From IMG/VR virus record IMGVR_UViG_2541047945_000005: 37,681 nt of DNA, one strand, 5' to 3'. The DNA is from a virus. Taxonomy: Duplodnaviria > Heunggongvirae > Uroviricota > Caudoviricetes. A model generated the notes under the pieces. That model made no database searches. It saw only the letters and a list, made by a program, of their open reading frames with translations, and had not been told where the DNA came from. The position numbers and the translations under genes are program-made. This document shows positions 3,731-37,681 of the stretch, in pieces. The stretch's first letter is position 1. Each line of letters begins with the position of its first letter.

Positions 3731-4068
3731 AGCAACTCCTGAGTCCGGGTCTGTCCGTCTGAGCCTTTCCAGCTCACCCGGAGCGTAAGATGTTCGCCGT
3801 CGACGGCGGGTTTAACTGACATAAGCTGGCAGCGGGGCTCCCAGCGTCGGATGGCATCGACGGATTCGCGCACCACATGCGGAATGGCCCGGTCTACAGG
3901 CCAGTCGATATAAAGATGCAGATTGCTGCCGAACTCCGGGCGATGCGGGTCGCTGCCGCGGGGAGTCCGCAGGATAATTTGAATCGCCTGCCGGATATCA
4001 TCCAGCCCCCGGACAATTTCGCCGGGAGCCTGCAGGGTCGGTTGCCAGAATACTGAGGTTGTTTTCAT
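3721..4068 (-). CDS. baseplate protein, gpW/gp25-like
   Basis: 115-aa ORF, size and position typical of P2 gpW / Mu gp46. Confidence 0.6.
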   Translation of the reverse strand: MKTTSVFWQPTLQAPGEIVRGLDDIRQAIQIILRTPRGSDPHRPEFGSNLHLYIDWPVDRAIPHVVRESVDAIRRWEPRCQLMSVKPAVDGEHLTLRVSWKGSDGQTRTQELLWR

Positions 4069-4098
4069 GGGGGCAGTATTGCCCCCGTGCGGGAACGC

Positions 4099-4122
4099 TG
4101 ATATTAAAGGCGTTTAAAAAGC
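4099..4122 (-). promoter_or_regulatory. conserved late-operon motif, copy 1 (candidate late promoter/activator site)
   Basis: ctgATATTAAAGGCGTTTAAAAAg, one of four aligned copies upstream of minus-strand late operons. Confidence 0.5.
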
Positions 4123-4719
4123 TCAGTGGGAGTGGTGGCTGGAGTTTTCGCCATCAGACAACATACTGCCCGTGGCATGGGCATTCCCTTTAATCTCGAT
4201 ATTGCCATGGATGGTCGCGGTAACACCTTCACCACCAGAACCCGCCATGCCTCCTTCGTAAATCAGCTTACCCCTGACACGCAGATCTCCGGTAAGTTCG
4301 GTTTCCGGTGCGTCAATCGTGGCTTTCTGTGTTTTCAATACCACATCAGCACCACACTCAATGACAATATGCTCAATGCCGCCCCGGATGATCAGAGTGT
4401 GCGTCTTCCGGTTGTAGCTGTACTCTGCACCATCAGCAAACCGGGTTCCCCGGATATTTTTGTCACTGAACGGTGGTTTATCGACGTCTGAATACACCGC
4501 GCCCAGAATAACACCATCCTCGCCGTTGGCATCGAGCAGCACCTCAACCTGCTCCCCCACGTCAGGGAGCCAGTAATCTTTGTTATCCTGGGTATTGCGC
4601 TGCAGCACGTTAAGCCAGTTTGTGCGCAGGTTATCGCATTCAGGCAGACGAACGCGGGCCTGAACCCTGTCGGCATCAACGGCACTGACCGTACCGACCT
4701 GACGAGTGACACCAGTCAT
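4123..4719 (-). CDS. baseplate spike/assembly protein, P2 gpV-like (Mu gp45-like)
   Basis: 198-aa ORF with His-rich C-terminus; ATGA overlap with upstream gene. Confidence 0.65.
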   Translation of the reverse strand: MTGVTRQVGTVSAVDADRVQARVRLPECDNLRTNWLNVLQRNTQDNKDYWLPDVGEQVEVLLDANGEDGVILGAVYSDVDKPPFSDKNIRGTRFADGAEYSYNRKTHTLIIRGGIEHIVIECGADVVLKTQKATIDAPETELTGDLRVRGKLIYEGGMAGSGGEGVTATIHGNIEIKGNAHATGSMLSDGENSSHHSH

Positions 4720-10517: not shown

Positions 10518-10677
10518 TCAGCGGTTCGTCCCAGTCTGCCGGGTTTTTGCTGATTTTGCGCACCTGCTTCAGGTCTTTTACCGTCAGGCGTTTCAGTTCA
10601 ACCAGCTCAATTCTGGTGCCTGCAGCAGTGGTGAAGGGATAAGACAATTTAAAAGTATCGGATGGGGTCTGTGACAT
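10342..10677 (-). CDS. tail assembly chaperone (P2 gpE-like, Mu gp41-like)
   Basis: 111 aa between tube and tape measure; AGGAG 7 nt upstream of ATG. Confidence 0.6.
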   Translation of the reverse strand: MSQTPSDTFKLSYPFTTAAGTRIELVELKRLTVKDLKQVRKISKNPADWDEPLIARSTGLLPEDLDNMDLADYLQLQKRFQLITGMGESNQGADAGAGAAGEMVPVSAGGD

Positions 10678-10728: not shown

Positions 10729-10752
10729 GGATATTAAAGGAGATTAAGAAGA
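10729..10752 (-). promoter_or_regulatory. conserved late-operon motif, copy 2
   Basis: cggATATTAAAGGAGATTAAGAAg, about 52 nt upstream of the chaperone ATG; GC hairpin at 10754-10767 just upstream. Confidence 0.5.
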
Positions 10753-10774
10753 AGGGGCCGGAGCCCCTGTGATG

Positions 10775-15475: not shown

Positions 15476-16606
15476 TTACAGGCAGCGTGCGACAGCAGCC
15501 TCATAGCTGATGCCTTCTTTTTTGGACAGGGCCACTGCTTTCTGATGCAGGGCCAGACGCTCAGGATCGGCTTCCGCAAACTCTGCCACATCCACCTTCA
15601 CCGTGTCGCCGACACGCTCTTTTGTGGCCTGTTCGGCGAAATTCATCACCGGCTCCCCGTCGGAGAGCAATGAACGAAAGGCGGTGGCCAGCGGTGTGCG
15701 GCTTTCCCCCTCAGCAAACTCCACCGGCTTGTCGCCACCGGCGACGGCATCCAGCAGGGCAACCACCACGGAGGAGGCGCGGGGAGCCAGACGGCCCTCT
15801 GCGACCAGTTTTTCTGCAAAGGCCACATTGTCCTTATGCAGTTGCTCCTGTCTGACCTGTGCATCACGCGCATCGCGATCAGCAGCCTGCTGCTTCAGGC
15901 GGCGGTTCTCCTCCTGAAGGGTTTCAATCTCTTCTTTTGTCATCGATGATTCCTCGTTACTTGCGGAAGACGGCCCCGGGCCTGTCTCACTGAATTGTGC
16001 ACCTGCTGCATCCTGCGACAGTGTGTCGCGGTACGCCTCTTCGCGCAGACTGTTGAGCTGCCATTCCGGCAGGACTTTTTCTGCCTCGTCCAGACTGAAG
16101 CGGGCGATCAGAAAATCGCGCAGCTTTCCCCACAGGGAGGCATTCGTGATGGCCTGCCAGTCGGCGAACTCCACCACACCTTCTTCCTGCTCACTGAAGG
16201 ACACCTGTTTCAGCCCCTTGATGGAAGGTGGCTGTGCCCCGAGAAAGCCCACATGGCGAAGGTAGAGCACGCCGGGCTTCGGATTGGACGGTGAATCCGG
16301 GAGGTAGAAAGAGGCGGACACTTTTTTGAATCGTCCGTCGGTGACCATCTCAGCAAACTGCGGGTCCAGCTGGGCAGGCTCTGCCATCAGATCGACGCCG
16401 CTGAGCGACAGGGCTTTCACCCAGCCCCACGCCGGGTCTTCCGTTCTGGGATGACCAATCACGAGTGGTGCTTCATGGACGGACGGGTCATAGGCTTTCA
16501 CGCAGGCGGCAAGATCGTCTGGCGTGAACGGCAGTTTTTTGCCGTGCATATCGGTATGAGTACCGGCTTTAAAAGTAAGCGTAAACTGACCGCCGTATGT
16601 AGCCAT
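15476..16606 (-). CDS. head protease/scaffold protein (Mu I-like); native 5' end separated by the IS66 insertion, current start codon lies inside the IS inverted repeat
   Basis: 376-aa ORF with coiled-coil C-terminal half; first 11 codons (MATYGGQFTLT) are IS sequence; native ATG at 19131 is in frame once the IS and one duplication copy are removed. Confidence 0.65.
   Translation of the reverse strand: MATYGGQFTLTFKAGTHTDMHGKKLPFTPDDLAACVKAYDPSVHEAPLVIGHPRTEDPAWGWVKALSLSGVDLMAEPAQLDPQFAEMVTDGRFKKVSASFYLPDSPSNPKPGVLYLRHVGFLGAQPPSIKGLKQVSFSEQEEGVVEFADWQAITNASLWGKLRDFLIARFSLDEAEKVLPEWQLNSLREEAYRDTLSQDAAGAQFSETGPGPSSASNEESSMTKEEIETLQEENRRLKQQAADRDARDAQVRQEQLHKDNVAFAEKLVAEGRLAPRASSVVVALLDAVAGGDKPVEFAEGESRTPLATAFRSLLSDGEPVMNFAEQATKERVGDTVKVDVAEFAEADPERLALHQKAVALSKKEGISYEAAVARCL
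16567..16574. repeat. 8-bp target-site duplication (left copy) CTTTAAAA
   Basis: Identical to 19107-19114, directly flanking the IS termini. Confidence 0.85.
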
Positions 16607-16659
16607 CAGACGAGAATTGGTAACTTAGACGCCCATCTGATATAGACGGACATCTAAGT

Positions 16660-17085
16660 ATGGAATTACAGGACTGGCGAAAAGAACCTCGTAAAAACTA
16701 TTCGAATGAATTCAAACTTCGTATGGTGGAACTGGCATCACAACCTGGAGCTTGTGTTGCACAGATTGCACGTGAAAATGGCGTCAATGATAATGTTATT
16801 TTCAAATGGCTCAGGCTCTGGCAGAACGAAGGGCGTGTTTCGCGGCGTCTTCCGGTAACGACCTCTTCTGACACTGGCGTTGAATTATTACCTGTAGAAA
16901 TAACGCCGGATGAGCAGAAAGAACCTGTGGCGGCCATTGCGCCGTCTTTATCCACTTCCACTCAGACCAGAGTCAGTGCCAGTTCCTGCAAGGTGGAATT
17001 CCGTCACGGTAACATGACGCTGGAAAATCCATCGCCAGAGCTGCTCACAGTGTTGATCCGTGAACTGACCGGGAGGGGAAGATGA
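16660..17085 (+). CDS. tnpA: IS66 accessory protein TnpA (orf1)
   Basis: 141 aa, first ORF of the IS66 triad. Confidence 0.8.
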   Translation: MELQDWRKEPRKNYSNEFKLRMVELASQPGACVAQIARENGVNDNVIFKWLRLWQNEGRVSRRLPVTTSSDTGVELLPVEITPDEQKEPVAAIAPSLSTSTQTRVSASSCKVEFRHGNMTLENPSPELLTVLIRELTGRGR

Positions 17086-17432
17086 TCTCACTCCCATCAG
17101 GTACCCGTATCTGGCTCGTTGCCGGCGTTACCGATATGCGTAAATCCTTCAACGGACTGGGAGAACAGGTACAACATGTGCTGAATGATAATCCCTTCTC
17201 CGGTCACCTGTTTATCTTCCGTGGCCGACGGGGTGACACCGTCAAAATTCTTTGGGCTGATGCTGATGGTCTGTGCCTGTTCACCAAACGCCTGGAGGAA
17301 GGCCAGTTTATCTGGCCTGCGGTACGTGACGGCAAGGTATCCATTACCCGCTCGCAACTGGCAATGCTCCTCGATAAGCTGGACTGGCGTCAGCCAAAAA
17401 CATCCAGCCGTAACTCACTGACAATGTTGTAA
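17082..17432 (+). CDS. tnpB: IS66 TnpB (orf2)
   Basis: 116 aa, ATGA overlap with tnpA. Confidence 0.8.
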   Translation: MISLPSGTRIWLVAGVTDMRKSFNGLGEQVQHVLNDNPFSGHLFIFRGRRGDTVKILWADADGLCLFTKRLEEGQFIWPAVRDGKVSITRSQLAMLLDKLDWRQPKTSSRNSLTML

Positions 17433-17462
17433 AAAACTCCTGACCGCATTATAAAAACGGTC

Positions 17463-19076
17463 ATGAGTCAGAAATACCTCATTCGCATCGCAGAGCTGGA
17501 AAGGTTGCTCTCTGAGCAGGCTGAAGCCCTCCGTCAGAAAGACCAGCAACTGAGTCTGGTTGAAGAGACGGAAGCCTTCCTGCGCTCTGCACTGACACGT
17601 GCCGAAGAAAAGATCGAAGAAGATGAACGGGAAATAGAACATCTGCGGGCTCAGATAGAAAAACTGCGCCGGATGCTGTTCGGTACCCGTTCTGAAAAAC
17701 TGCGTCGTGAAGTTGAACTGGCTGAGGCTCTGCTGAAACAACGTGAACAGGACAGCGATCGTTACAGTGGGCGGGAAGACGATCCTCAGGTTCCCCGCCA
17801 GTTGCGACAGTCGCGCCATCGTCGTCCGTTACCGGCACACCTTCCCCGTGAAATACACCGCCTGGAGCCAGAAGAAAGCTGTTGCCCGGAGTGTGGCGGT
17901 GAGCTGGATTATCTGGGGGAAGTCAGCGCTGAACAGCTGGAACTGGTGAGCAGTGCCCTGAAAGTGATCCGCACAGAACGGGTAAAAAAAGCCTGTACAA
18001 AATGTGACTGTATTGTTGAAGCACCGGCGCCGTCCCGCCCGATAGAGCGTGGTATCGCGGGCCCCGGATTACTTGCCCGCGTGTTAACGGGAAAATACTG
18101 CGAACATCTGCCACTGTATCGTCAGAGTGAAATCTTTGCCCGCCAGGGTGTCGAACTGAGCCGGGCCTTACTCTCCAACTGGGTTGACGCGTGCTGCCAG
18201 TTAATGACACCGGTGAATGATGCCCTGTACCGTTATGTAATGAACACCCGCAAGGTTCACACTGATGACACACCGGTAAAGGTACTGGCACCGGGTCAGA
18301 AAAAGGCGAAAACAGGGCGTATCTGGACGTATGTCCGGGATGATCGCAATGTGGGTTCGTCATCTCCTCCAGCGGTCTGGTTCGCGTACTCGCCGAACCG
18401 GCAGGGGAAACACCCGGAGCAACACCTCCGCCCCTTCCGGGGTATCCTGCAGGCGGATGCGTTCACAGGTTACGACAGGTTGTTCAGTGCAGAACGTGAA
18501 GGTGGTGCACTGACAGAAGTTGCGTGCTGGGCCCATGCCCGGCGAAAAATCCACGATGTATACATCAGCAGCAAAAGTGCGACGGCAGAAGAAGCCCTGA
18601 AGCGAATCAGTGAACTGTACGCCATCGAGGATGAAATACGGGGATTACCGGAGTCAGAGCGTCTTGCCGTCAGGCAGCAGCGAAGCAAAGTGTTACTGAC
18701 GTCGCTGCATGAATGGATGGTGGAGAAGAATGGTACGCTGTCGAAAAAATCCAGACTGGGCGAAGCGTTCAGCTATGTACTGAATCAGTGGGATGCCCTC
18801 TGTTATTACAGTGATGACGGTCTGGCGGAGGCGGATAATAATGCTGCGGAAAGAGCGCTTCGTGCAGTCTGTCTCGGAAAGAAAAACTTTATGTTCTTTG
18901 GCAGCGATCACGGCGGCGAGCGTGGAGCACTGTTGTACGGGCTGATCGGCACCTGCCGTCTGAACGGTATCGATCCGGAAGCGTATCTGCGCCATATCCT
19001 GAGCGTACTGCCGGAATGGCCTTCCAACCGAGTTGACGAACTCCTGCCATGGAACGTAGTACTCACCAATAAATAA
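17463..19076 (+). CDS. tnpC: IS66 transposase TnpC (orf3)
   Basis: 537 aa; N-terminal coiled coil, CxxC...CxxC zinc motif. Confidence 0.85.
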   Translation: MSQKYLIRIAELERLLSEQAEALRQKDQQLSLVEETEAFLRSALTRAEEKIEEDEREIEHLRAQIEKLRRMLFGTRSEKLRREVELAEALLKQREQDSDRYSGREDDPQVPRQLRQSRHRRPLPAHLPREIHRLEPEESCCPECGGELDYLGEVSAEQLELVSSALKVIRTERVKKACTKCDCIVEAPAPSRPIERGIAGPGLLARVLTGKYCEHLPLYRQSEIFARQGVELSRALLSNWVDACCQLMTPVNDALYRYVMNTRKVHTDDTPVKVLAPGQKKAKTGRIWTYVRDDRNVGSSSPPAVWFAYSPNRQGKHPEQHLRPFRGILQADAFTGYDRLFSAEREGGALTEVACWAHARRKIHDVYISSKSATAEEALKRISELYAIEDEIRGLPESERLAVRQQRSKVLLTSLHEWMVEKNGTLSKKSRLGEAFSYVLNQWDALCYYSDDGLAEADNNAAERALRAVCLGKKNFMFFGSDHGGERGALLYGLIGTCRLNGIDPEAYLRHILSVLPEWPSNRVDELLPWNVVLTNK

Positions 19077-19106
19077 GCGTCAATACGGTGCTCCGTTGAC
19101 GCTTAC

Positions 19107-19114: not shown

Positions 19115-19187
19115 ATGTGAATGGCTGACATTTTGCTGTCCCGCGTTATGTTGTCGGAGACAGTTTGTGAGAAATGCAGGCCCGGCG

Positions 19188-19207
19188 ATTTTAATCTGCT
19201 TTAGAAA
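19188..19207 (-). promoter_or_regulatory. conserved late-operon motif, copy 4 (upstream of the native start of gene I)
   Basis: gcgATTTTAATCTGCTTTAGAAAa, 56 nt upstream of the native I ATG at 19131. Confidence 0.45.
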
Positions 19208-19345
19208 ACATCAGGGGAGAAGGACAGGGAAAGCAATGCGGTGAACCGGAGGCGGTTATAAAACAGAGGCTGTAAAGCCTTTATAAAGGTAATACAGCCC
19301 CTCATTCTCTGGCAATGATAAATCACCCGCCTGAAGAGAGAAAAC

Positions 19346-26603: not shown

Positions 26604-26651
26604 GTGTGTCTCCTCGTTTGGTGGAGACAGCATCACAAATACAGGGCGCAA

Positions 26652-26675
26652 AGGATTTTAAAGCGCGTTAAGAGA
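26652..26675 (-). promoter_or_regulatory. conserved late-operon motif, copy 3 (candidate lysis/late promoter)
   Basis: aggATTTTAAAGCGCGTTAAGAGa, 49 nt upstream of the holin ATG. Confidence 0.5.
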
Positions 26676-26733
26676 GCCGGGGATACGGGATGTGCAGGAT
26701 AAACGATGAATTATTCACAGAGGAGAATACGAT

Positions 26734-27210
26734 ATGACGCACACACTGAATCCGGTCATCACTGTCACTGTGTCCGGTCCTGTGGGCAGCGGTAAAAGTT
26801 ACGTACTGGCGCGGATAGAAGAGATGGTGAAACAGGAACTCGGAAACAGCGTCATTGTCGATGCTGCTGACGTGGAGAATGAGCGCCGTATGAATGGCGA
26901 AGATCTGACGACCTGGCAGAAGCCACGGGGTGGCACAGTGATCAGGCTAGAGGAATACACGGGACAGGGCCTGTTGTCATACGGCGAGGAGCGTATCTGT
27001 CGGACGAATGAGCTGCTGGATGTTATATGCCCCACGGGCCGGCAACCCTGGATACTGCCCGATGCACTGCATGCCACCATTGCGGCACTGATGACAGTTT
27101 ACGATCAGGAGCTGCTCATGAAGGAGTTACGTAAACTCACCGGTCAGCCAACAGAATGTTGTTCGTCTCCGAAGTACGGCAAACAGGAAAACGCCCCGGA
27201 TAATCCTTAA
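26734..27210 (+). CDS. small P-loop protein, possibly a kinase-like fold
   Basis: Walker A GPVGSGKS at residues 15-22, acidic VIVDAADVE segment after it; GAGGAG 7 nt before ATG. Confidence 0.6.
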   Translation: MTHTLNPVITVTVSGPVGSGKSYVLARIEEMVKQELGNSVIVDAADVENERRMNGEDLTTWQKPRGGTVIRLEEYTGQGLLSYGEERICRTNELLDVICPTGRQPWILPDALHATIAALMTVYDQELLMKELRKLTGQPTECCSSPKYGKQENAPDNP

Positions 27211-27247: not shown

Positions 27248-27829
27248 CTAAAAAAAGAAGTGTATTATTGCCCAAACAGCTATAACGATGATTCCCAGCC
27301 CAAGAGCCGATTCTAACTTATCTTTGGCAGTCATTTTTACTGTTGTAGCGGGCGCAGGTAAGTCTTGCTGCTGTGGATTTTCTGTTAGTTGTTTACGAGA
27401 AGAAACATCGCCCCTATTAGTTTGCTTCATGTTGATTACAGATGCGTTATGGGCATTATCAGCAGCAATTGACTGAAGTTTTACAAAAGTTTTTGAATCT
27501 GTTTTAGCCAGAAGTAACCTATTTCCCGTAAACATTGCCTTAAAAGTGATAGTTTTTTTCGTCTTGTCCGCCGCACCAAGCAAACCTCCAATGACCAACC
27601 CTGCACCACCAAAGATTAATCCACCAAGCAAACCTGCGCCTGCCGCCTTACCTATACGGCTTTCCTCTTCACTATCCGCAAGTTCAATCGATAAAAGCTC
27701 TTCTTTCAGATTTAATACAATATTTTCAGGAAAGCCTTGTTTTGGTTTTTTGGCAAACACGATGGTACCGAACCCCATGCTTGCCCACCCTTTAGGAAAA
27801 CTTCCTGCGATAACCTGAATCCCTGCCAT
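27248..27829 (-). CDS. glycine-zipper membrane protein with C-terminal anchor, unknown function
   Basis: GKAAGAGLLGGLIFGGAGLVIGGLLGAA and C-terminal LGLGIIVIAVWAIIHFFF; AT-rich; start taken at the third ATG (ORF track 27838). Confidence 0.6.
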   Translation of the reverse strand: MAGIQVIAGSFPKGWASMGFGTIVFAKKPKQGFPENIVLNLKEELLSIELADSEEESRIGKAAGAGLLGGLIFGGAGLVIGGLLGAADKTKKTITFKAMFTGNRLLLAKTDSKTFVKLQSIAADNAHNASVINMKQTNRGDVSSRKQLTENPQQQDLPAPATTVKMTAKDKLESALGLGIIVIAVWAIIHFFF

Positions 27830-27919
27830 GTTCATCACCTTTTACATTAAAATTTCAGAACGCAGCATGATGCCGCCTTTGTCTTTTTTCTGATCCCATG
27901 GTAATTCAGCTGTTATTTT

Positions 27920-28906
27920 CTATTTAAGAATAAAACGGTATTTACTGTCAGGAGTGCTTTGCTGATCAAGTAGCAGTGAACGACATGGAGCAGTCAAAAC
28001 CCGAGCATAACTACCATCAGGGCTTATGTTAATGTAACAAACCTTGCCCTTAACACTATAATTTTCGGGGACGGATGCCTTTGCTGATACAGTAAATTTA
28101 AGGGTATGCCAGCCCGTTTTTTGCTTGTAGCTTGAAACCGAATGGAAATCATCTGAGTACTTATTTAACCCTGGAAACATGCTGCGCAGTGCGGGGATGG
28201 AATCTTCTATTATTTTATCGTTGGTTTTAATGTTAAAAACGCTGGTTTCAGTAGAAGCTACTGCTTTGGCATTTCCCCATTTACCAGCGAACACAATCAT
28301 TCCCACGAAAAATATTGCTACAAGAACTAACACTCCCCCCAACACTACTACATGAGGCTTCCGGCTTCTGGTTGGTACAGTTGCGACTGATTTTGCACCG
28401 CTTTCCGATGGAGGTGATAGAGTTTTACTCTCATCACGAATATTCAGCAGATCATCAAAATAACCAAACACAGCCTGCAACTGCTCTTTGTCTAGGCCTT
28501 TAAGATGGGTTGTACCGAAATGCTTCAGACAGTATCTGTCACGGTCAAGACGATACCCAGGGTCAGTAAGCGCCATTATTTTGCTGACCAGAAGATTACA
28601 GTCCTTCATATTCTGGATCTGTTGTGCATATCTCTGAAGGATCTCAACCGCACCATGATAATCAGCCGCAGTCATTTCATTAACTGTTTTGGTATTAAGT
28701 TTCGTGTGGATCGTCATCCATAGCTCGCGCTTACTTTCCCCCAGATCAACCAATTCATCCATCAATCTGTGTAAATCGCGTTTTTGCAGCAACGAAATTG
28801 GTTGCTGGGCCGAAGGAAGTATGTCAGCAGAATAGTTATGAATGGTAACATCACCGCTGACAACGTTACCCACATCCCCGTTAACTGTTTGCTTCTCTTT
28901 ACTCAT
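27920..28906 (-). CDS. single-pass membrane protein translationally coupled to the repressor, unknown function
   Basis: 328 aa; one TM helix at about residues 176-198; ATGA overlap with the repressor stop; AT-rich. Confidence 0.65.
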   Translation of the reverse strand: MSKEKQTVNGDVGNVVSGDVTIHNYSADILPSAQQPISLLQKRDLHRLMDELVDLGESKRELWMTIHTKLNTKTVNEMTAADYHGAVEILQRYAQQIQNMKDCNLLVSKIMALTDPGYRLDRDRYCLKHFGTTHLKGLDKEQLQAVFGYFDDLLNIRDESKTLSPPSESGAKSVATVPTRSRKPHVVVLGGVLVLVAIFFVGMIVFAGKWGNAKAVASTETSVFNIKTNDKIIEDSIPALRSMFPGLNKYSDDFHSVSSYKQKTGWHTLKFTVSAKASVPENYSVKGKVCYINISPDGSYARVLTAPCRSLLLDQQSTPDSKYRFILK

Positions 28907-29364
28907 CTTCTCTTGGTATTTTTGTTCATTATTCCACCTGTTCCTATGGTTACGTTACCTTTGATAACATTCCCCAGAACATCTCCATGAATAACCTGTT
29001 CCGCCCGTTCTCTGGAGGAGCCAGTAGTCAAGGCCGACAAAACTGAACCTTTGACCTGTAATGGTGCCTGCCGGTAGTGCTGCAGTAACTCCATTTCATC
29101 ACGTGATAAAGTTATACCTGATGACTCCCCGGTAAGAATGAACTGTACATTGGCCCCAATTCTTGCAAAGGCTGCAAGTAACTCACCTCCGGGAACAGCA
29201 ACCCCTCGTTCATATTTCCCCCACATTTCTCTTGAAACGCCACAAAGGGCTGCTACTTCAGCCTGCTTGAGTGATAACCGCGAACGCTCAGCTTTGAACC
29301 GCGACGCGCAAAGAGAATCAAAATTCACATAAACCTCATTGACAATGAGAACAATAGTTCTCAT
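28903..29364 (-). CDS. CI-type (XRE-family HTH) prophage repressor
   Basis: HTH LSLKQAEVAALCGVSREMWGKYERG; divergent from the early operon; no LexA-like peptidase motif seen; alternative GTG start at 29328 with GAGG. Confidence 0.7.
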   Translation of the reverse strand: MRTIVLIVNEVYVNFDSLCASRFKAERSRLSLKQAEVAALCGVSREMWGKYERGVAVPGGELLAAFARIGANVQFILTGESSGITLSRDEMELLQHYRQAPLQVKGSVLSALTTGSSRERAEQVIHGDVLGNVIKGNVTIGTGGIMNKNTKRR

Positions 29365-29414: not shown

Positions 29415-29603
29415 ATGACTTCCGAACAAGTTAAAAATCTCTTCCGTCAGCGTGGTATCACGTTTACCCGCTGGGCCGAAGAACACGGCTACAGCCGCAA
29501 TGAGGTCTATCGTGTTCTCAATGGACAGACCAAAGCTCGTTACGGCAAAGCCCATGAAATTGCCGTAAAACTGGGATTAAAACCCACGTCAAATGCGGCA
29601 TAA
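29415..29603 (+). CDS. small DNA-binding regulator (Cro/Ner functional analogue)
   Basis: 62 aa, first gene of the early operon, AAGGAG 6 nt upstream. Confidence 0.6.
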   Translation: MTSEQVKNLFRQRGITFTRWAEEHGYSRNEVYRVLNGQTKARYGKAHEIAVKLGLKPTSNAA

Positions 29604-29655: not shown

Positions 29656-29964
29656 ATGAGTAAAGTAAATATTTCCAGTTCTGGGACCCGCATCCTACGT
29701 GTACTCAAAGCTCTACGCGGTCATGCTCTGAACGGTGTTTCTAACGGTGAACTGGCATCAGCCCTGGGGGAGTCCCCAGCGAATATCAATCGAGCACTTA
29801 ATACCCTTATTGAAGAGGGACTGGCCATGAAATTAGAGAACGGACGTTTCGCACCGGGAATCCAGTTACTACAGATCGCCATGGCTCACAGTCACGAGAT
29901 GGCGCGTGCACAGGATCGTATTAACGAAATCAACCAACGAGTTATTTCAGGTAGTCGTTTGTAA
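29656..29964 (+). CDS. winged-helix DNA-binding protein, unknown role
   Basis: LRVLKALRGHALNGVSNGELASALGESPANINRALNTLIEEGL resembles a wHTH; start taken at an internal ATG. Confidence 0.45.
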   Translation: MSKVNISSSGTRILRVLKALRGHALNGVSNGELASALGESPANINRALNTLIEEGLAMKLENGRFAPGIQLLQIAMAHSHEMARAQDRINEINQRVISGSRL

Positions 29965-36878: not shown

Positions 36879-37320
36879 ACAACGTCTTATCCAGCTCATT
36901 CATATTGCCCGTAATGAACTGGGTATGGATGAAGACACCTACCGCCAGATGTTACAGGGGCTGACCGGTAAAGCCTCAACCAAAGGAATGGATACCACAC
37001 AACTAAACTGCGTGCTGGAATCCATGAAAAGGAAAGGCTTTCGCGTTAAGCCTGCCGGAAAAGCCAGCTCCGGTTTACCGCTGGATAACCATCCGCAGTC
37101 CAGGAAAATCCGTGCGCTATGGCTTGAAATGGCTGCTGCCGGCATTGTTCGTGACCGTTCAGAAAATGCATTAGCGCGGTGGATCAAGCGGGAAACGGGC
37201 ATCAGCGCCCTGCGCTGGCTCAATACTGAACAGGCAAGCAGTGTTATTGAGAAACTGAAGAAGTGGCAGCACAGAGCTGCGGGAGTAAAACATGAGCGAC
37301 CTGAATCAGTTTCGAAGTAA
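36868..37320 (+). CDS. GemA-like protein (Mu gp16-like)
   Basis: Position directly upstream of Mor; AAAGGAG RBS. Confidence 0.5.
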   Translation: MMTKQRLIQLIHIARNELGMDEDTYRQMLQGLTGKASTKGMDTTQLNCVLESMKRKGFRVKPAGKASSGLPLDNHPQSRKIRALWLEMAAAGIVRDRSENALARWIKRETGISALRWLNTEQASSVIEKLKKWQHRAAGVKHERPESVSK

Positions 37321-37681
37321 AGGGCCGGAACTCCTGGTGGAACTGGCACAGCATACCTCTGAGACCGTTCGCGAGATTATTGATATTGAGCCCGCAATTG
37401 CCGACCAGATTGGTCAGGCCGTCGCGAACCGCATGATGCAGGTCTGGGGCGGGCAAAACGTTTATTTCCCGATGGGCATGGTATGGAAGGTCAGTCAGCG
37501 CGACCGGGAAATCTTCAGGGAGTTTAACGGACGTAACCACCATGAACTGGCCCGCAAATTTGGTGTTTCGCTTCAGTGGGTCTACAGCGTGGTTAAGCGG
37601 GTAAGAAAAGAAGAACTGGATCGGATGCAGGGCAAGCTATTTGCTGATGAACCCGATGTAGATACGGAGAAAAAAGAGTAA
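37292..37681 (+). CDS. mor: Mor-like middle-operon transcriptional activator
   Basis: 129 aa (the length of Mu Mor), C-terminal HTH (ELARKFGVSLQWVYSVVKR), last gene of the early block. Confidence 0.65.
   Translation: MSDLNQFRSKGPELLVELAQHTSETVREIIDIEPAIADQIGQAVANRMMQVWGGQNVYFPMGMVWKVSQRDREIFREFNGRNHHELARKFGVSLQWVYSVVKRVRKEELDRMQGKLFADEPDVDTEKKE

Follow-up and report, generated by a model that had tools for sequence, protein, structure and literature searches.

A recurring dyad before the late operons of a BcepMu-type prophage as the candidate operator of its Mor-type activator

Introduction

A short motif recurs ahead of four late operons in the 37,681-nt stretch of DNA analysed here (henceforth the window), raising the question of what the motif does, which protein would read it and where transcription would begin relative to it. 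Activator-dependent promoters of phage Mu offer a frame for the answer: the promoters to which Mu Mor and C bind have a -10 but no -35 element, the binding site of either protein being an imperfect dyad with its centre at -43.5, and recruitment of sigma-70 polymerase to weak -10 elements has been shown for both proteins. Mor/C-dependent promoters are well known, and gp01 of BcepMu is already annotated as a Mor/C homologue. A description of the four promoters or their operator was not found in the searchable literature, which does not extend to the original BcepMu paper, so that a prior description is possible; nor did this literature yield a start site, footprint or activation assay for this phage group.

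Results

The window carries a BcepMu-type prophage with a split head gene

Judged by its sequence, the window represents an E. coli prophage of the transposable, BcepMu-type kind. Its DNA is 100% identical to E. coli chromosomal prophages over 11 kb and, in the part compared, 99.7% identical to Escherichia phage PhiKM, which is classified in Bcepmuvirus, while Klebsiella phage KP12 shows ~87% identity to it. The late genes occupy the minus strand (~554 to 26603) and the early operon the plus strand (~29415 to the window end), and the gene order is common to the window, an almost identical lysogen (RefSeq annotation) and the BcepMu genome. On the minus strand, the late region runs from holin, transglycosylase, spanins, terminase, portal, F and G, through I, T, head completion, sheath and tube, to tail chaperone, tape measure, U, X, D and V, and finally to W, J, I and fibre. 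The early order on the plus strand is repressor, Cro-like protein, transposase A/B, gam, gemA and Mor. The genes downstream of the motif copies were identified through the RefSeq annotation of the almost identical prophage, and the holin gene also by Pfam.

The window's copy of the prophage is probably defective in head maturation, because an IS66-family (ISEc23-like) insertion on the plus strand (16575-19106), with an 8-bp target duplication, splits gene I. The insertion interrupts gene I in its ninth codon, leaves 25 nt of the gene after the native ATG at 19131 and separates the candidate promoter of the gene I operon (P3, see below) from the remaining head operon. P3 now faces into the insertion, antisense to the IS genes, and an ORF annotated as a 'peptidase' (15476-16606) begins within the IS end. 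Adjoining the repressor gene is a low-GC block on the minus strand (27248-29364; 43-46% GC versus ~55-59% elsewhere) that holds two genes without Pfam matches. KP12 and PhiKM have different genes in its place, including a DNA adenine methylase, and the block looks like a variable accessory (moron) region.

Four copies of a dyad mark the late operons

The preliminary description of this DNA had listed four plus-strand copies of the motif, placed them 30-56 nt upstream of the first genes of late blocks and proposed that they are activator-dependent late-promoter elements. All four copies were recovered: GATATTAAAGGCGTTTAAAAAGC at 4100, GATATTAAAGGAGATTAAGAAGA at 10730, GATTTTAATCTGCTTTAGAAAAC at 19187 and GATTTTAAAGCGCGTTAAGAGAG at 26654. 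Measured to the start codons, the distances are 31 nt (gpW, ATG 4068), 52 nt (tail assembly chaperone, 10677), 54 nt (gene I, native ATG 19131) and 49 nt (holin, 26603), within the range given. Read on the coding (minus) strand, the copies resolve into the dyad TTAA-N6-TTAA, or CTAA-N6-TTAA in the gene I copy, the distance between the two TTAA centres being 10 bp; the consensus of the conserved box is ytt TTAA nsccct TTAA wAtcc. All four sites are on one strand, and each falls in a non-coding gap, of which the late region has few.

The sequence GATWTTAA has five exact matches in the 37.7 kb against 1.15 expected, and four of these are the motif sites, all on one strand. YTAA-N6-TTAA occurs in the 37.7 kb at these four loci only (seven strand-matches against 0.73 expected), and none of 100 shuffles reached seven. 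Because both patterns were derived from the sites themselves, we built an independent matrix from relatives. Forty loci were fetched from other species via capsid protein alignment, and the matrix (31 sequences, 50 columns) was made from relatives only, with capsids ≤77% identical, the sequences being picked solely by an exact dyad within one of the four expected position ranges. The window sites scored 42.2, 40.1, 31.5 and 20.7 bits (before holin, gpW, tail chaperone and gene I, respectively), and the maxima of 200 first-order Markov simulations, which served as the null, had a mean of 5.7 and a largest value of 17.2 bits. The next-best match in the window, at 8.7 bits, is the opposite strand of one of the four sites, and the matrix scan of the whole 37.7 kb found no fifth site.

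We designate the candidate promoters P1 to P4 and describe them in the direction of late transcription, all features being on the minus strand. At P4, ahead of the lysis/holin operon, the candidate activator dyad TTAA-CGCGCT-TTAA spans 26658-26671, within a conserved box extending to ~26653-26674, and orthologous dyads precede holin in relatives. P3, ahead of the head gene I operon, has the dyad CTAA-AGCAGA-TTAA (19191-19204), and CTAA/GTAA-N6-TTAA is kept before gene I in relatives and in BcepMu. P2, ahead of the tail assembly chaperone/tape measure operon, has TTAA-TCTCCT-TTAA (10734-10747), with orthologous sites present in relatives. P1, ahead of the baseplate gpW-J-I-fibre operon, has TTAA-ACGCCT-TTAA (4104-4117), again with orthologous sites in relatives, and the gpV stop codon (4123-4125) stands directly upstream of this dyad.

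A terminator-like hairpin, AGGGGCTCCGGCCCCT, with a T-rich tail (10753-10768) closes the transcription unit of sheath and tube and borders directly on the P2 dyad. In relatives the hairpin is kept at P2 with differing stems (ggggcttcggcccc, ggggcatcagcccc, ggagggataggtttccctcc, gggagagacggcgatctctccc and ggcccgcttcggcgggcc), which fits re-initiation at P2. We also considered the motif itself as a terminator and rejected this, since its arms are 4-bp AT pairs and the terminator-like hairpin of P2 is a separate structure just upstream.

The palindromic P4 dyad can also be read on the plus strand, where a hexamer CAGGAT lies at the correct distance (26658-26700) and faces a divergent gene (26734-27210) that encodes 158 aa with a weak AAA-like match and is replaced by a different neighbour in KP12. 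This plus-strand reading scores only 3.4 bits with the matrix and is not conserved; bidirectional activation at the P4 dyad is possible but unsupported.

The same four junctions carry the dyad in relatives

Scanning the whole prophage and its relatives for the motif, a check named in the preliminary description, gave no sites but these four in the window and the same four junctions in relatives. In 32 full-length loci from other species (~670 kb) there are 61 exact dyads, 51 of which fall within four orthologous zones amounting to 14% of the sequence; these zones are the junctions before holin, gene I, tail chaperone and gpW. Genera among the loci include Mixta, Pantoea, Erwinia, Photorhabdus, Xenorhabdus, Pectobacterium, Brenneria, Eikenella, Gallibacterium and Burkholderia, and the dyad is found at the same four positions in Klebsiella, Photorhabdus, Pectobacterium, Burkholderia, Ralstonia and Pasteurella relatives. 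When the complete genomes of KP12, Ralstonia phage YO107_2 and Pasteurella phage AFS-2018a (the last with a gene order collinear with Mu) were scanned, each returned exactly four top sites, on the late strand and before the lysis genes, gene I, tail chaperone and gpW. In BcepMu the site reads CTAA-AGCCGA-TTAA ahead of holin, GTAA-AGCCGA-TTAA ahead of gene I, TTAG-CCGGCT-TTAA ahead of gpW and, in degenerate form, TTAA-TCTGCG-CTGA ahead of the chaperone gene. A scan of host DNA flanking the prophage gave no such sites. Pseudomonas phage JBD25, whose Mor is 41% identical, also lacks matching sites, and therefore the motif is not universal to the Mor family.

A candidate -10 element lies 23 nt past the dyad

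The claim that there is no good -35 element proved correct, as none of the four sites carries a complete sigma-70 promoter (-35 plus -10) on its coding strand. The -10 itself had been placed in the TAATAT or TAAAAT that ends the motif, a placement that the relatives do not bear out. Position 6 of this hexamer, the would-be -7, is T in 33, G in 11, A in one and C in one of 46 distinct relatives, and TAATAT/TAAAAT is mostly the right half-site TTAA plus three bases. TAAAAG is the form of most gene I promoters, among them those of KP12, BcepMu and most Enterobacterales, and is also present in YO107_2; TAACAG occurs in Pectobacterium, and TAATAA, TAAAGT, TAATAG and TAATAC are found among other relatives. 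Because its last T is replaced by G in 11/46 relatives, TAAwAT in the motif is probably not the -10.

A second block, nATACTg, begins exactly 23 nt after the dyad and played no part in the selection of the sequences. Across the 46 relatives, A occupies its position 2 in 42 and position 4 in 33, C position 5 in 42 and T position 6 in 42, followed by G in 40. The 23-nt interval varies freely in sequence but is constant in length (46 distinct sequences). In the window sites, the hexamer starts at offset 37 from the first base of the dyad and the centres of dyad and hexamer are 33 bp apart. The corresponding hexamers of an AT-rich Pasteurella phage are TATACT, TATTCT, TAAACT and TAATAT, which have the canonical form TAnnnT. 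By these patterns, the downstream hexamer nATACT appears a better candidate for the -10 than the TAAwAT inside the motif.

The candidate -10 elements of the window, each followed by G, are GATGCT at P4 (26629-26634, +37 to +42 from the dyad), CAAACT at P3 (19162-19167), CATACT at P2 (10705-10710) and AATACT at P1 (4075-4080), all on the minus strand. An extended -10 is not evident: TG does not stand directly upstream of the hexamer in P1, P2 or P3, and the TG upstream of the P4 hexamer is in the wrong register (ttTGtGATGCT).

These candidates are weak, and as isolated hexamers TAATAT (P1 and P2) and TAAAAT (P3 and P4) look stronger, being good -10 matches. One might therefore keep the -10 within the motif, put the transcription start ~7 nt after it and let an activator bind further upstream; this would agree with the missing -35 at the sites and with the A at +15 in 44/46 and the T at +16 in 33/46 relatives. 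We nevertheless regard such an arrangement as unlikely. The most critical base of a -10, its last T, is G in 11 of the 46 distinct relatives, and nothing is conserved at -35 to -55 from the TAAwAT hexamer, a stretch that is gpV coding sequence at P1 and is unrelated in KP12 at P4. The dyad would moreover centre at ~-16.5, unlike any Mor/C promoter, and neither the invariant downstream hexamer at its fixed distance nor the fixed distance to the gpW ATG would be explained.

Predicted start sites and a possible leaderless gpW mRNA

Retaining the downstream hexamer as the candidate -10, we placed the predicted starts 7 nt after it, at 4068, ~10698, ~19155 and ~26622. For P2, P3 and P4 the predicted leaders are 19-24 nt long and carry a ribosome-binding sequence, the GGAG-type sites before the holin and chaperone genes being clear and the GGGA before gene I weaker. 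At P4, a start at the predicted ~26622 would place 19 nt of leader, GGAG included, ahead of the holin ATG (26603), while the predicted P2 leader has 21 nt with AGGAG before the ATG at 10677. The predicted start of P3 is ~19155.

P1 is arranged differently: counting from the hexamer, the seventh base is already the A of the gpW start codon (4068) and hence the predicted +1, and there is no Shine-Dalgarno sequence upstream (gcccccATG). The gpW ATG follows the hexamer by 6-7 nt in E. coli, Klebsiella, Photorhabdus, Xenorhabdus, Burkholderia, Ralstonia and Pasteurella relatives, and across genera no purine-rich tract precedes it (gcccccATG, gttccccATG, tgccgcATG, cagggctATG). Two further start codons, the likely one of gene I in BcepMu and that of holin in a Burkholderiaceae prophage, stand at the same distance from their hexamers. 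The BcepMu gene I protein aligns with that of the window from its third ATG (MNAKPLHIF versus MSAIHIF), which stands 7 nt past the hexamer GATGAT. Such coincidences would be expected if transcription really began at the predicted +1. On this comparative evidence we propose, tentatively and at somewhat less than even confidence, that P1 yields a leaderless gpW mRNA with its predicted +1 at the start codon. If so, the internal, activator-dependent promoter P1 would serve chiefly to create a translatable 5' end, and gpW (baseplate wedge) would be made only from Mor-initiated transcripts and not by read-through from the upstream tail operon; in Burkholderia prophages the leaderless pattern also holds at the likely gene I start.

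As a point of annotation, the start assigned to BcepMu gp32 (the gene I equivalent, L004 18850) is probably four codons early, the alignment favouring 18862. Separately, hairpins occur on the minus strand between the candidate -10 and the start codon at 4069-4086, 19132-19161 and 26606-26628. The gpW hairpin is GGGGGCA-ATAC-TGCCCCC, that of gene I is CTGTCTCCG...CGGGACAG, and that of holin is GTCTCC...GGAGAC, with the ribosome-binding site within its 3' arm. The pairing partners covary in relatives (for example gcctctattaacgtaatagaggc in Photorhabdus), and the hairpins may affect translation or the structure of the 5' end.

A single Mor/C-family gene closes the early operon

The preliminary description had supposed that the activator gene is not in the window and that the late activator would be found downstream of mor; on both counts the window reads otherwise. 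A single gene of the Mor/C family of transcription activators (129 aa; Pfam PF08765, E 1.3e-43; RefSeq annotation) lies at 37292-37681 on the plus strand and is our proposed activator of P1 to P4. Both the early operon and the prophage end with it: in the almost identical lysogen it is followed by ~160 bp without an ORF, too little for another such gene, and then by the disrupted host gene prpR. A tblastn search of the window revealed no second Mor/C-family homologue. BcepMu-type genomes have one Mor/C homologue each, and Mu, D108 and SfMu have two.

Over the aligned stretches, the window activator shares 31% identity with Mu Mor and 37% with Mu C (56 and 54 bits); it is equally distant from both, and we therefore make no claim of orthology. 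It matches the solved structures 1rr7, 9l0y and 9l0x. Its overall identity to BcepMu gp01 is only 54%, yet the two proteins agree fully in the beta-strand motif WGGQN(V/I)YFPMG and in the helix-turn-helix HELARKFGVSLQW(V/I)Y. In cryo-EM structures of Mor/C the corresponding regions contact DNA. The conserved protein surface therefore matches the conserved dyad, a circumstantial argument that the activator may recognise it. The predicted base-contacting residues of the window activator differ from those of Mor and from those of C. Its expression before the late genes is predicted from gene order.

Three other helix-turn-helix or DNA-binding proteins are encoded in the early region (28906-29364, 29415-29600 and 29656-29961; Pfam), and these raise the possibility that the dyad is an operator or architectural site for the phage repressor, the Cro-like protein, an IclR-like regulator or a host nucleoid protein, and not for Mor. 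Sites of nucleoid proteins typically have AT-rich half-sites, as the dyad does. We hold this to be very unlikely, however: the early control region, where a repressor or Cro operator would be expected, has no copy of the dyad, nor does the rest of the window; host flanking DNA is likewise free of the motif; and the fixed 23-nt distance to a -10-like hexamer, together with the geometry of Mu Pm (below), points to an activator that contacts polymerase. Chance similarity of AT-rich intergenic DNA without function deserves next to no weight, for although such DNA is AT-richer than coding sequence, short motifs in two to four copies can arise randomly and the initial pattern was defined post hoc, the independent matrix gave 20.7-42.2 bits against a null maximum of 17.2, and position and register of the motif are kept, within diverged flanks, in relatives as far from E. 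coli as those of Burkholderia, Ralstonia and Pasteurella.

Comparison with Mu and related systems

The closest architectural parallel to the proposed Mor operators is Pm of Mu. The published Mor dyad at Pm spans -51 to -36, and we placed the Pm numbering on the Mu sequence via the published permanganate-sensitive positions -12, -4, -1, +1, +3 and +4. So numbered, the Mor dyad reads AGTAAAGCCGGTTAAT and the -10 is TATCCT at -13 to -8, followed by G. Like the window sites, whose start sites are predicted ones, Pm has a dyad of the same build (GTAA-AGCCGG-TTAA) with a hexamer at offset 37 and the two centres 33 bp apart. Both share AT half-sites, a GC-rich 6-bp spacer, a weak -10 followed by G and no -35, and a single base separates the Pm operator from GTAA-AGCCGA-TTAA, the gene I site of BcepMu. 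In a matrix scan of Mu, Pm came second among ~73,000 positions and in the correct register, with 8.1 bits, a score within the null range (mean 6.7, maximum 15.5). A search of the window for the Mu operator 15-mer GTAAAGCCGGTTAAT with ≤3 mismatches hit none of the four sites and gave one chance match in the sheath gene (12820). Given the weak Pm score and the failed 15-mer search, the likeness is therefore one of architecture and half-sites, not of near-identity. Just after mor in Mu, a GC-rich hairpin with a T run overlaps the Mor dyad at Pm.

A Mor/C-family gene at the end of the early operon, directly after gemA, is common to Mu and the window. The use of the activator differs: Mu Mor acts at a single promoter, and C, the product made from it, goes on to activate the late promoters, whereas the window has one type of site before all four late units and no C gene. 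The late promoters of Mu resemble those proposed here in being four in number and activator-dependent and in having a -10 without a -35; the imperfect dyad of the Mu promoters, 16 bp long, is centred at -43.5, close to the ~43 bp predicted for the window sites. The number four that the preliminary description gave for Mu is correct, and only the lysis and I positions are equivalent. The other two late promoters of Mu precede P and mom, while those of the window precede tail chaperone and gpW; the two tail promoters sit at other junctions because the tail module of the window is like that of phage P2. In our reading of the Mu sequence, the Pmom dyad is TTAT-N6-ATAA, with 4-bp arms, a 6-bp spacer and an offset of 38. 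Its half-sites, TTAT/ATAA, differ from the TTAA/TTAA of the window, which are not of the C type, and Plys, PI, PP and Pmom, which are Mu's late promoters, were not among the top matrix matches in Mu.

The likeness is greater within the BcepMu family (Bcepmuvirus), which has the same genome layout, the same four gaps with the same module and a 54% identical activator. Differential RNA-seq tables of B. cenocepacia J2315, a BcepMu lysogen, list starts at the acyltransferase gene, at gp20 and at some internal or antisense sites, and for this uninduced prophage they hold no starts at the four late junctions. The J2315 prophage being uninduced and silent, the missing late starts neither support nor refute the model.

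Homologues of the window activator in KP12 and phiE255 carry the annotation 'DNA-binding protein RdgB'. RdgA and RdgB are a regulatory pair for pectin lyase production in Pectobacterium, where carotovoricin has been characterised as a Mu-type tailocin. RdgB resembles Mor and is by itself the positive regulator. It is a host-domesticated regulator, unlike the prophage activator of the window, and the searchable literature offered nothing usable on RdgB binding sites.

Discussion

What, then, is the motif? It is supported, by position and by conservation of sequence, as an activator-dependent late-promoter element that probably marks the four late transcription units, in agreement with the main proposal of the preliminary description. 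We consider it likely that the four copies are operators of the prophage's own Mor-type activator at four late promoters with a weak downstream -10. The anatomy, conservation and geometry of the sites, which can be read directly, lead us to infer that Mor binds them, that transcription starts where predicted and that the late units are activated in this way. Each operator would consist of the imperfect dyad and a few conserved flanking bases, centred ~43 bp upstream of the transcription start, and would be read by the single Mor/C-family activator encoded at 37292-37681; the actual -10 would be the weak nATACT followed by G, 23 nt past the dyad, with no -35.

In the mechanism that we propose, early transcription after induction would reach Mor at the end of the early operon. 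Mor, as a dimer or tetramer as in Mu, would bind the four dyads and recruit sigma-70 RNA polymerase through contacts with sigma region 4 and the alpha-CTD, as described for Mu Mor/C. The late units would then be switched on directly: lysis and DNA packaging from P4, head from P3, tail chaperone and tape measure from P2, and baseplate and fibre from P1, where the start would coincide with the A of the gpW ATG and gpW would be translated from a leaderless mRNA. With four late units activated by Mor without a middle step, the cascade would therefore be two-tier (early, late), compared with the three tiers of Mu.

This provides a testable model for BcepMu-type transposable prophages, with one Mor-type activator, four operators and four predicted starts; it leaves the current understanding of Mor/C activation unchanged. 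BcepMu-type prophages are widespread in Enterobacterales, Burkholderia and Pasteurellaceae and are related to the carotovoricin tailocin, and the 50-bp module of dyad, 23 nt and hexamer could serve as a signature for late operon boundaries and the activator regulon in prophages and tailocin clusters. The three-step cascade of Mu may elaborate a simpler two-step one that used Pm-like sites.

Another conserved stretch of non-coding DNA deserves mention beside the gene I promoter. The element TTTATAAAG(G/C)(C/G)TTTAC(A/G)G lies at ~19268-19292 on the minus strand, 65-90 bp upstream of the gene I dyad; it has a counterpart in BcepMu (L004 18733-18756) and is conserved from E. coli to Burkholderia in diverged flanks. 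In the window it sits inside an inverted repeat, GGCTGTA...TACAGCC, that is weakly terminator-like and is missing in Photorhabdus. Its place between G and I, in mid-genome, is where Mu carries its strong gyrase site, and the element could be an equivalent of that site or a second regulatory site.
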